Under the pieces are notes generated by a model, which saw only the letters and a program-made list of their open reading frames with translations, searched no databases and was not told where the DNA came from. The translations under genes were made by a program, and so were the position numbers. This document shows, piece by piece, positions 62,462-64,000 of a stretch of DNA of 64,000 nt (its first letter is position 1; each line of letters begins with the position of its first letter). Where the stretch lies: the NCBI RefSeq assembly GCF_056712565.1, contig NZ_CM160072.1, one strand, 5' to 3'.

Positions 62462-63226
62462 TTAACCTTTCTGCTCGACGGAAATCATGGTGACAAAAGG
62501 ATAGCGTTGCCACGGGATTGCCTCGCCTTTCATATACATATGTGAAATTGTGCCATCAAGATAAAGCAGCTGCTCAACGTTCAGTTTCGCTTTGGCATAA
62601 CAGGCAAAATCATAAAAATTTGTCGCCTGCTGGCTCAACAAAAACACGGCGTTCCCATGTTTATTAATCCCAACACCGTTACGAATTTTACGTGAGGCGA
62701 CGTTGGGATGAATACGCGGATTAATTACACCGTTTTCCATCAACAATGGCCCTGACTGCACCGCAAACTGAATCTCTTTACTGGTTTTAAAGGCATCCAG
62801 ACGAACGATGCCGACTTTATCTCCCGCGACATAAAACACTCCGCCAGGACGAATAAAGAAATTCCCTTCACCTGAAGCGAGATTTAACGCCACCTTCTGC
62901 TGACCGTTTTCGATGTACAAACCGAGCGGCGCATAGCTTTCATCATAGATGCCGCCGTTCATCGCCATCTGCACCTGACCCTGACTATTAATATCCGCCA
63001 GCAGAGCATGTAACGTTCCCCACGCTTCGCCATTGGCTTTTTGCCAGTACATTTTCACCCGCTCTGTTTGAGGATTAACGGTATACGCCTGTACGGTCAG
63101 CGTCGGATCTGAGGGTGCGCAATCATCAGCGGCAACAGCAAACAAGGGAAGTAAGGTGAGGGTGAGAAAAATCCGTTTGAGATTCAAGGTGATCATTCCT
63201 TTACCAATGAATAGCCGATGCGCCAT
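62462..63226 (-). CDS. yigE: DUF2233-family secreted protein YigE (phosphodiester glycosidase-like fold)
   Basis: 254-aa track ORF; signal peptide (LTLTLLPLFAVA) after probable internal start MITLNLKR. Confidence 0.8.
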   Translation of the reverse strand: MAHRLFIGKGMITLNLKRIFLTLTLLPLFAVAADDCAPSDPTLTVQAYTVNPQTERVKMYWQKANGEAWGTLHALLADINSQGQVQMAMNGGIYDESYAPLGLYIENGQQKVALNLASGEGNFFIRPGGVFYVAGDKVGIVRLDAFKTSKEIQFAVQSGPLLMENGVINPRIHPNVASRKIRNGVGINKHGNAVFLLSQQATNFYDFACYAKAKLNVEQLLYLDGTISHMYMKGEAIPWQRYPFVTMISVEQKG

Positions 63227-63318
63227 TATAGGCCCTGAATGTGGGATTTTTTTATCCTGTTAGCGACCTTGACGAGTACCAAAAAGCGCGAAGTTCAACT
63301 ATTGTTCTGTGGTGTTCT

Positions 63319-63350
63319 GTTGCGTGTTGACGGCAAAATTTTGCTGGCGT
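63319..63350 (+). promoter_or_regulatory. putative sigma70 promoter for corA
   Basis: ttgacg -35, 17-bp spacer, taacat -10 (gtgttgacggcaaaattttgctggcgtaacatgcg); leaves a ~240-nt 5' leader. Confidence 0.45.
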
Positions 63351-63595
63351 AACATGCGCGCACGATCACTCTAAGAGGACATTCGCCTTGGACACACCCA
63401 GTAGATACTGGCTCATTATCCTGTCATCCAGGATCAACTCCTAAGGCTATCCCTTTTTGCTGATAGCCTTAGCGGTTGTCAGCGACCTCAATTTTTCCCG
63501 TCGCGCTGAGTCAGGCTGTTTAATGGTCTGAAACCCAATTTGTTTCTGTGTGCCCACCGAACTGTCCGATATTTTAAGCATTGGGAGTCCCGGTC

Positions 63596-64000
63596 ATGCT
63601 GAGCGCATTTCAACTGGAAAATAACCGACTGACCCGGCTGGAAGTCGAAGAGTCACAACCCCTTGTAAATGCAGTATGGATTGATCTTGTCGAACCGGAC
63701 GACGACGAGCGACTGCGCGTACAATCTGAACTTGGCCAGAGCCTGGCAACCCGCCCGGAACTGGAAGACATCGAAGCATCGGCACGTTTCTTTGAAGACG
63801 ATGACGGCCTGCATATTCACTCCTTCTTCTTCTTTGAAGATGCGGAAGATCACGCCGGTAACTCCACTGTGGCATTTACCATCCGTGATGGTCGTCTGTT
63901 TACTCTGCGTGAGCGTGAACTGCCCGCTTTTCGTCTGTATCGTATGCGTGCCCGTAGCCAGTCAATGGTGGACGGTAACGCCTACGAGCTGCTGCTGGAT
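63596..64000 (+). CDS. corA: Mg2+/Co2+ transporter CorA, N-terminal part (runs off window end)
   Basis: [89 protein letters not shown]...; no stop in window. Confidence 0.88.

Follow-up and report, generated by a model that had tools for sequence, protein, structure and literature searches.

In enteric bacteria CorA serves as the main constitutive channel for Mg2+, and the corA leader has been studied in detail as a case in which uORF translation and RNA structure regulate Rho-dependent termination. In Salmonella the leader adopts either stems A and B or stems C and D; stem B leaves the rut site open to Rho, while C and D together sequester it (Kriner and Groisman, NAR 2017, PMC5314796, which summarises and extends their 2015 Salmonella work). 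The short ORF corL overlaps stem A, and its efficient translation favours stem B and is inversely coupled to corA transcription (PMC5314796). Compensatory mutants back stems B, C, D and E, with the mutations M1 and M2 restoring stem C when combined, and the rut site spans nucleotides 89-177 (PMC5314796). Stem-loop E (152-172) sets where Rho terminates, and RNA polymerase pauses at U192 and U240 (PMC5314796).

The same leader has been studied in E. coli K-12, where Mg2+ regulation of corA depends on the 5' upstream region (5' UR) rather than on the promoter (Vezina Bedard et al., RNA Biol 2024, PMC11552253). In the Rho R66S mutant the RNA polymerase occupancy in the ORF goes up (score 3.3), and in vitro Rho and NusG terminate transcription at U211 and G216-U220, with about 24% termination without Rho and about 55% when Rho/NusG are added (PMC11552253). 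Mutants of the ON-state and OFF-state structures act as predicted, exchange of the corL start codon UUG for AGG derepresses corA, exchange for AUG represses it, and a corL-lacZ fusion is upregulated 1.7-fold at higher Mg2+ (PMC11552253). The corA-leader architecture is thus documented in E. coli itself and not merely apparent.

The window analysed here is a stretch of 64,000 nucleotides from contig NZ_CM160072.1 (RefSeq assembly GCF_056712565.1), which ends within corA. It carries, in this order, uvrD (+), an ORF of the SAM-hydrolase family (-, 61477-62379), yigE (-, 62462-63226) and corA (+). Over positions 63150-64000 the window matches E. coli Nissle 1917 and the type strain ATCC 11775 at every base (100% identity), and 5425 of the 5426 complete E. 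coli genomes contain a match to this segment; by these identities the window can be assigned to E. coli. The intergenic region between yigE and corA is 369 nt long, with the corA ATG at 63596. An earlier reading of the letters (the sequence-only reading) had described all of 63227-63595 as a long corA leader. This range does contain the leader, but its first ~100 nt (63227-63326) are intergenic sequence upstream of the promoter. In RefSeq, identical E. coli genomes carry a 57-nt gene between yigE and corA, annotated as 'ysgD: YsgD/CorL family protein', and in K-12 MG1655 ysgD is annotated at the same place (b4799). Two ORFs on the minus strand cross the leader (44 aa, 63447-63581; 41 aa, 63488-63613); they carry no annotation and were taken as mechanical ORFs.

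From the evidence below we consider it very probable that this region comprises the corA promoter and a leader of ~233 nt which acts as a translation-coupled, Rho-dependent transcription attenuator. Its features are as follows, each with the basis for its placement.

63327-63332, plus strand: -35 hexamer TTGACG of the corA promoter (consensus scan; invariant in 48 distinct enterobacterial sequences)
63350-63355, plus strand: -10 hexamer TAACAT of the corA promoter, after a 17-nt spacer (scan; invariant across the alignment)
63362-63364, plus strand: probable transcription start (+1), placed within 3 nt (three published numberings)
63362-63595, plus strand: corA 5' leader (5' UR), about 233 nt (K-12 comparison, conservation, folding)
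63365-63463, plus strand: reported ORF CDS177, from ATC at 63365 to TGA at 63461-63463, overlapping corL in the +1 frame (PIRT-Seq, PMC12350097)
63373-63378, plus strand: Shine-Dalgarno sequence AAGAGG of corL, 9 nt before the UUG (sequence; nearly invariant in the alignment)
63385-63447, plus strand: stem A, a three-way junction, OFF state (local fold -21.6 kcal/mol; Salmonella M1*/M1 sites)
63388-63444, plus strand: corL/ysgD uORF with UUG start, 18 codons (MDTPSRYWLIILSSRINS) and TAA stop (RefSeq annotation in an identical genome)
63441-63472, plus strand: stem-loop C, ON state, the hairpin of the sequence-only reading (local fold -15.0 kcal/mol; Salmonella M1/M2 sites)
63450-63536, plus strand: rut region, equivalent of Salmonella 89-177 (extent from the Salmonella paper; single-stranded segments C/U-rich and G-poor)
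63457-63485, plus strand: stem-loop B, 12 pairs, OFF state (terminator-like in the scan; local fold -17.4 kcal/mol; Salmonella M7/M5)
63482-63504, plus strand: stem-loop D, GCGAC:GUCGC around a pyrimidine-rich loop, ON state (local fold -6.1 kcal/mol; in the MFE structure)
63511-63531, plus strand: stem-loop E, Salmonella 152-172 (local fold -8.2 kcal/mol; positions Rho-dependent termination in the literature)
63551, plus strand: equivalent of the major RNA polymerase pause U192 of Salmonella (homology only, between T186-T188 at 63545-47 and C194-196 at 63553-55)
63573-63582, plus strand: Rho/NusG termination sites of K-12 in vitro, U211 and G216-U220 (coordinates transferred with +1 = 63363; sequence identical to K-12)
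63583-63598, plus strand: Shine-Dalgarno sequence GGGAG (63583-87) and ATG (63596-98) of corA (sequence, annotation; invariant in the alignment)
63596-64000, plus strand: corA CDS (Mg2+/Co2+/Ni2+ channel), cut by the end of the window (annotation transferred)

A consensus scan of 62900-64000 returned TTGACG-17-TAACAT as the sole sigma-70-like match. As shuffled sequences average 1.0 match, this match on its own is not above chance. The promoter call is supported because both hexamers are invariant around a variable spacer (0.77 identity, 17-18 nt long, among the 48 distinct enterobacterial sequences) and because the published +1 falls 7-9 nt past the -10 hexamer. Three numberings could be transferred to the window: the Salmonella mutant coordinates G24-C26, G84-C86 and G105-C107 set +1 at 63362, the E. 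coli termination sites U211 and G216-U220 all match their bases only with +1 at 63363, and the numbering of the E. coli oligo 'corA41-71txR' leads to 63364. All three positions lie 7-9 nt past TAACAT, and the promoter proposed in the sequence-only reading is therefore the right one. The distance of '~245 nt' to the corA ATG given there is close, since the -10 hexamer ends 240 nt upstream of the ATG and the leader measures 232-234 nt, in line with the promoter about 235-240 nt before the ATG that marks corA leaders of this family.

The leader folds better than expected from its composition. For a 251-nt stretch from the start region into corA a dG of -80.5 kcal/mol was obtained (z = -3.78 against shuffles), and stems A, B, C, D and E were each recovered as a local fold optimum. 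The full-length MFE structure is the ON state with C, D and E (-76.5 kcal/mol), and when stem B is forced the energy is -68.0 kcal/mol. The positions of the stems were reconstructed from the mutant coordinates in the main text of the Salmonella study (NAR 2017, PMC5314796). With a consistent offset, the window has the expected base at each nucleotide named in the Salmonella mutagenesis, so that all mutated positions have a counterpart here.

In stem A a closing helix (63385-63391 with 63441-63447) encloses two small hairpins at 63398-63411 and 63418-63434. Salmonella G24-C26 and G84-C86 (M1*/M1) correspond to 63385-87 and 63445-47 in this helix. The whole corL ORF lies inside stem A, with its start and stop codons within the closing helix. 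Thus the short proline-containing uORF that was to be expected in a leader of the Salmonella type is present at 63388-63444: an 18-codon ORF with UUG start, its own Shine-Dalgarno sequence and a single, conserved proline.

The inverted repeat which the sequence-only reading placed at ~63443-63471 is real and slightly longer. Its arms, CTAAGGCTATC (63441-63451) and GATAGCCTTAG (63462-63472), form 11 perfect pairs around a 10-nt loop, and the stem extends imperfectly to 63435-63478 (17 nt, 88% complementarity). Such stems are rare: among 2000 dinucleotide-preserving shuffles of 63227-63595 a perfect stem of at least 10 bp occurred in 8 and one of at least 11 bp in 1. Salmonella G84-C86 (M1, GGC) and G105-C107 (M2, GCC) fall at 63445-47 and 63466-68, one triplet in each arm, and this hairpin is therefore the published stem-loop C. 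It is the anti-termination hairpin of the ON state and not a terminator.

The remaining stems could be mapped in the same way. Salmonella T97/C99 (M7) and G121/G123 (M5) correspond to 63458/60 and 63482/84 in stem B, and the oligo used for the E. coli ON-state mutant alters 63474-79, also in stem B. In stem D G121/G123 (M5) pair with C143/C145 (M6), here 63482/84 with 63502/04. Arms are used in common by A and C (63441-47), by B and C (63462-72) and by B and D (63482-85). All four helices are thus predicted, the published mutation sites map onto them, and A with B (OFF) and C with D (ON) are mutually exclusive. Further downstream the Salmonella positions G155-T158, G166-C169 and C175-177 are matched exactly by GGCU, GGUC and CCC in the window, the last at 63534-36.

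The segments expected to serve as rut site have a fitting composition. The spacer at 63486-63499 is 86% pyrimidine and contains 0% G, and the loop of stem C, also the 5' flank of stem B, has the same pyrimidine content (86%). These C/U-rich and G-poor segments flank stem B and would be sequestered when C and D form. The transferred termination sites lie just upstream of the corA Shine-Dalgarno sequence.

The comparison across species was based on a scan of a single genome for each bacterial species, using a 20-base pattern made from positions common to E. coli and Salmonella. It yielded 59 loci, all of them corA leaders homologous to that of the window (87-100% identical over 331 nt), from Escherichia, Salmonella (arizonae, diarizonae), Citrobacter, Enterobacter, Kluyvera, Leclercia, Kosakonia, Phytobacter and Pseudocitrobacter. 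The list excludes, for example, S. enterica LT2 and the E. coli type-strain chromosomes, and absence from it does not mean absence of the element. The mean pairwise column identity is 0.914 in the leader, 0.613 at the third codon positions of corA and 0.633 in the intergenic sequence upstream of the promoter, a difference which shows what we read as strong purifying selection on the leader across the Enterobacteriaceae. Because the search pattern fixes 20 bases within 63511-63555, conservation in this part is inflated and partly given by construction. This concerns stem E, which is invariant in 59/59 loci with 10 of its 21 bases fixed by the pattern, and likewise the invariance of stem E, the CCC motif and the conserved pause region in the 59 loci.

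Both folds keep their pairing in 97.7-98.4% of cells of the alignment, and nearly all pairs are invariant (60 sequences). The closing helix of stem A is invariant and 100% paired; across the loci pairing is retained in 96.2% of cells for stem B, 97.7% for stem C and 100% for stem D. In the covariation test with the 60 sequences one compensatory pair (UA/AU, in the second small hairpin of stem A) was detected together with single changes that preserve pairing as G.U; the common substitution A63465G, for instance, keeps both B and C paired via G.U. Since the helices are nearly invariant they provide little independent covariation support, and the structural model draws its support chiefly from probing and compensatory mutagenesis in the literature. 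The rut spacer varies in length (11-17 nt) among 52 distinct sequences and is still 84% pyrimidine with 5% G.

In corL the TTG start is kept in 59/59 loci, the length of 18 codons in 58/59, and Pro4 is invariant. Mean identities at codon positions 1, 2 and 3 are 0.97, 0.86 and 0.98. With the third positions most conserved this is not a coding-type pattern, indicating that constraints at the RNA level dominate. Against K-12 one base of the 234 of the leader differs (63416, T in the window and C in K-12), which gives Ile as residue 10 of CorL where K-12 has Thr. The Ile10 allele is common to Citrobacter and Salmonella arizonae.

Taken together with the published work, the attenuator would function as follows. 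Transcription of corA would start 7-9 nt past TAACAT and yield a leader that encodes corL and can take two mutually exclusive folds. In the OFF state stem A, enclosing corL, and stem-loop B would keep the segments rich in C/U and poor in G unpaired, as a rut site; Rho could load there and, with NusG, terminate transcription around +211 to +220, shortly ahead of the ribosome-binding site of corA. In the ON state stem-loops C and D would sequester these segments, so that transcription continues into corA. As the stop codon of corL (63442-63444) sits in the 5' arm of stem C, a ribosome that reaches it through efficient translation of corL should prevent C from forming and allow B to form (OFF). 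Weak initiation or elongation on corL would leave C free to form (ON). This steric argument, which we infer from the positions, agrees with the published model. Stem-loop E, further downstream, would determine where Rho acts, and high intracellular Mg2+ would lead to more corL translation and less corA expression.

How Mg2+ is sensed could also be explained in another way. The leader might chiefly be a direct Mg2+-sensing RNA, riboswitch-like as first proposed for mgtA, in which Mg2+ picks the fold and corL is secondary. The RNA-like conservation of the corL codons would fit this, and the E. coli authors see a likeness to the fold of the mgtA 5' UR (PMC11552253). Moreover, the corL-AGG mutant retains about 1.3-fold Mg2+ regulation, and Rho R66S lowers the regulation only from 3.3-fold to 2.4-fold (PMC11552253), so Rho and corL are not the whole mechanism. 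However, corA expression goes strongly up or down with changes of the corL start codon, and Mg2+ affects the translation of corL itself (PMC11552253); neither PMC5314796 nor PMC11552253 contains direct Mg2+-RNA binding data for corA. In addition, a cmscan of 63000-64000 against the 4227 families of Rfam 15 returned at E <= 10 three chance-level matches (mir-76, AaHKsRNA54 and tracrRNA), all far below their gathering scores, and otherwise no family including metal-sensing RNAs. We consider direct sensing unlikely as the chief mechanism; it might still act as a contributing layer, because residual regulation survives without the corL start.

A second translated frame could extend the translation-coupled model. 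PIRT-Seq reports the 32-codon ORF CDS177 in the corA leader (PMC12350097). It contains five prolines and its stop codon lies inside the loop of stem C, at the 5' edge of stem B. Ribosomes on CDS177 would stop 19 nt downstream of those on corL and occlude other arms of the switch, and the ON/OFF decision could in this way integrate two overlapping uORFs. All 32 codons of the frame are open in roughly 50/59 loci, and a 1-nt deletion breaks the frame in 7/7 Kluyvera loci. Most species have ATT in place of ATC as its start, which is 1-3 nt away from the transcription start and has no Shine-Dalgarno sequence, and the alignment reveals no coding-type codon-position pattern in either the corL or the CDS177 frame. 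We regard a role of CDS177 as doubtful.

The corL product itself might primarily be a trans-acting protein, with CorA or Mg2+ homeostasis as possible targets, and the structure of the leader would then be incidental. Tagged YsgD is detectable in E. coli (bioRxiv 10.1101/511675), and the N-terminal motif MDTPS(R)(Y/C)WL of CorL is conserved in the 59 loci. The C-terminal half, on the other hand, varies freely (I/T/N at position 10, I/S/F/L at 11, S/F at 14, I/N at 16), again with the third codon positions most conserved, and the structural switch explains the cis effects of the start-codon mutants. No trans function of CorL is reported in PMC5314796, PMC11552253 or bioRxiv 10.1101/511675. A protein that works mainly in trans thus appears quite improbable.

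Stem B followed by a T-run (63457-63485, then CCTCAATTTTT) could in principle form an intrinsic, Rho-independent terminator as in a trp-type attenuator. The consensus scan indeed lists stem B as terminator-like, with 12 pairs and then the T-run, and the about 24% of product terminated in vitro without Rho could be attributed to it. But the T-run begins 6 nt past the stem, the segment following the stem differs in length (11-17 nt) and sequence between species, and the mapped products, both with and without Rho, end at U211 and G216-U220, about 90-100 nt past the end of stem B (~+123) and not at +125 to +135. Addition of Rho/NusG also raises termination to about 55% (PMC11552253). An intrinsic terminator at stem B is very improbable, and the trp-type class was rejected for this leader. 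The hexamers and the hairpin might also have arisen by chance and have no regulatory role, as the one promoter-like match in 1.1 kb expected from shuffled sequences could suggest. Conservation and the published experiments exclude this: the genera compared all have the two hexamers unchanged on either side of a variable spacer, a perfect stem of at least 10 bp occurs in 0.4% of shuffles, the leader is much better conserved than synonymous sites, and there is direct experimental literature on this element.

The identification of the region as the translation-coupled corA attenuator confirms the annotation of the yigE-corA intergenic region and gives the hairpin seen by the sequence-only reading a defined role, namely stem-loop C as the anti-termination arm. 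It opens no new question; both Mg2+ sensing and translation of an overlapping frame have already been raised in the literature.

Compared with other leaders, the attenuators of trp, his and pheA share with corA that the position of a ribosome on a leader ORF picks between exclusive hairpins. They differ in that the corA terminator is Rho-dependent, without an intrinsic hairpin and U-tract, and in that corL contains no run of codons for a single amino acid. Relative to trp the logic is inverted, as efficient translation of the leader ORF leads to exposure of the rut site and termination.

The mgtA/mgtL leader is closer, having in common with corA a short uORF in a three-way junction, stem-loops that switch a rut site, and a downstream gene for a Mg2+ importer. 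The mgtA-type Mg2+ sensor leader is a different RNA family, which we take to be the Rfam family Mg_sensor. The corA leader has no Rfam family; as it gave no covariance-model match to the mgtA-type sensor, it was not assigned to that family and works alike only. CorL contains a single proline, in contrast to mgtL with its many prolines and acidic residues. Unlike that of mgtA, the corA promoter is not PhoP-controlled and not Mg2+-responsive, and for mgtA the E. coli study found no termination by Rho (PMC11552253).

The corA leader of Salmonella enterica (PMC5314796) shares with the window the uORF-coupled choice between A with B and C with D, the rut site, stem E and the pauses, and in both termination occurs just before or at the start of corA. 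In E. coli the leader lacks about 4 nt relative to Salmonella, with two 2-nt differences, in Salmonella 123-129 and 196-240, which were deduced from coordinate offsets and are seen against S. arizonae and S. diarizonae in the alignment. The suggestion that a long, structured leader of the Salmonella type with a uORF and Rho-dependent attenuation is retained here was well founded, given the annotated uORF, the Salmonella nucleotides that map onto the window and a K-12 leader only one base away.

The closest system is the 5' UR of E. coli K-12 corA with corL (PMC11552253), which is the same locus in the same species, with 233/234 leader bases identical. The promoter, the position of corL, stems A-E and the termination region are all the same; the window differs by T at 63416 (CorL Ile10) and by the extra SAM-hydrolase-family gene upstream of yigE. 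By this identity the element can be regarded as the already known corA leader/corL attenuator, essentially in the K-12 version with one substitution. The mechanism described for K-12 and Salmonella, with Rho dependence, termination sites, alternative structures, the effect of corL and the response to Mg2+, would be expected to transfer unchanged to this strain.

The conservation of corL, the 18-codon upstream reading frame with a UUG start in the corA leader (63388-63444), was analysed by codon position in the alignment. The third position is the most conserved (0.98), followed by the first (0.97) and then the second (0.86), which is the reverse of the normal coding signature. In the C-terminal half of CorL the amino acids vary among the aligned loci and the RNA pairing is kept. 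Position 63416 is the sole leader difference from K-12 MG1655, with T in the window and C in K-12, and this base gives CorL an isoleucine at residue 10 instead of the threonine found in K-12. The Ile10 allele is common to the window, Citrobacter and Salmonella arizonae/diarizonae.

A naturally occurring variant of the corA switch is found in Enterobacter sp. EA-1:
L034:5323-5653, corA leader of Enterobacter sp. EA-1, with a 7-nt deletion corresponding to window positions ~63436-63442.
This deletion takes out the corL stop codon together with part of the arm that is common to stems A (OFF fold) and C (ON fold), and corL is lengthened to 22 codons with a TGA stop.

A second reading frame overlaps corL:
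63365-63463, plus strand, 32-codon ORF ITLRGHSPWTHPVDTGSLSCHPGSTPKAIPFC*, in the +1 frame relative to corL.
This ORF is CDS177, which was reported to be translated in E. coli by PIRT-Seq (PMC12350097). The start codon of CDS177 is ATC and lies 1-3 nt from the inferred transcription start, and its stop codon is located inside the stem-C loop. Among the 59 related loci ATT is the usual start codon, and the frame has a length of 32 codons in about 50 of them. In all Kluyvera loci (7 of 7) a 1-nt deletion shortens the frame to 12 codons.

Two other elements were detected further downstream in the leader, the second extending into corA:
63505-63556, near-invariant block comprising stem-loop E (loop included), the CCC motif and pause region.
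63564-63575 and 63618-63629, imperfect inverted repeat GTCCGATATTTT / AAAATAACCGAC, 12 nt, 83% complementary, arms 42 nt apart.
The block of ~50 nt is almost invariant in 59 of 59 loci and takes in the 25 free (N) positions of the search pattern with which these loci were retrieved. Loop and flanks show the same strict conservation as the stem, and this suggests that sequence-specific recognition acts here in addition to base pairing. The arms of the inverted repeat enclose the sites of Rho termination and both the Shine-Dalgarno sequence and the start codon of corA, and through this repeat the end of the leader could pair with the first corA codons.

Two metagenome-assembled genomes carry corA leaders nearly identical to that of the E. 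coli window, one labelled 'uncultured Alistipes sp.' (L019, 99.7% identity) and one labelled 'Paenibacillus sp.' (L060, 97.9%). The contig is in both cases almost certainly a misbinned Escherichia-like one.

On the upstream side, the corA locus is flanked by an additional gene:
61477-62379, minus strand, 300-aa ORF between uvrD and yigE.
In Nissle 1917 it is annotated as 'SAM hydrolase/SAM-dependent halogenase family protein', whereas K-12 has no gene between uvrD and yigE, which are spaced by 147 bp. The ORF is a strain-variable insertion or deletion. For the downstream flank the following regions were compared:
L001:4433-5775, Nissle 1917.
L002:4920-5694, K-12.
Past the window end, the genes 3' of corA in Nissle 1917 are DUF943 and YPO3983-family genes, and K-12 has yigF and yigG in their place. 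Like the upstream flank, the downstream flank of corA differs in gene content between Nissle 1917 and K-12.
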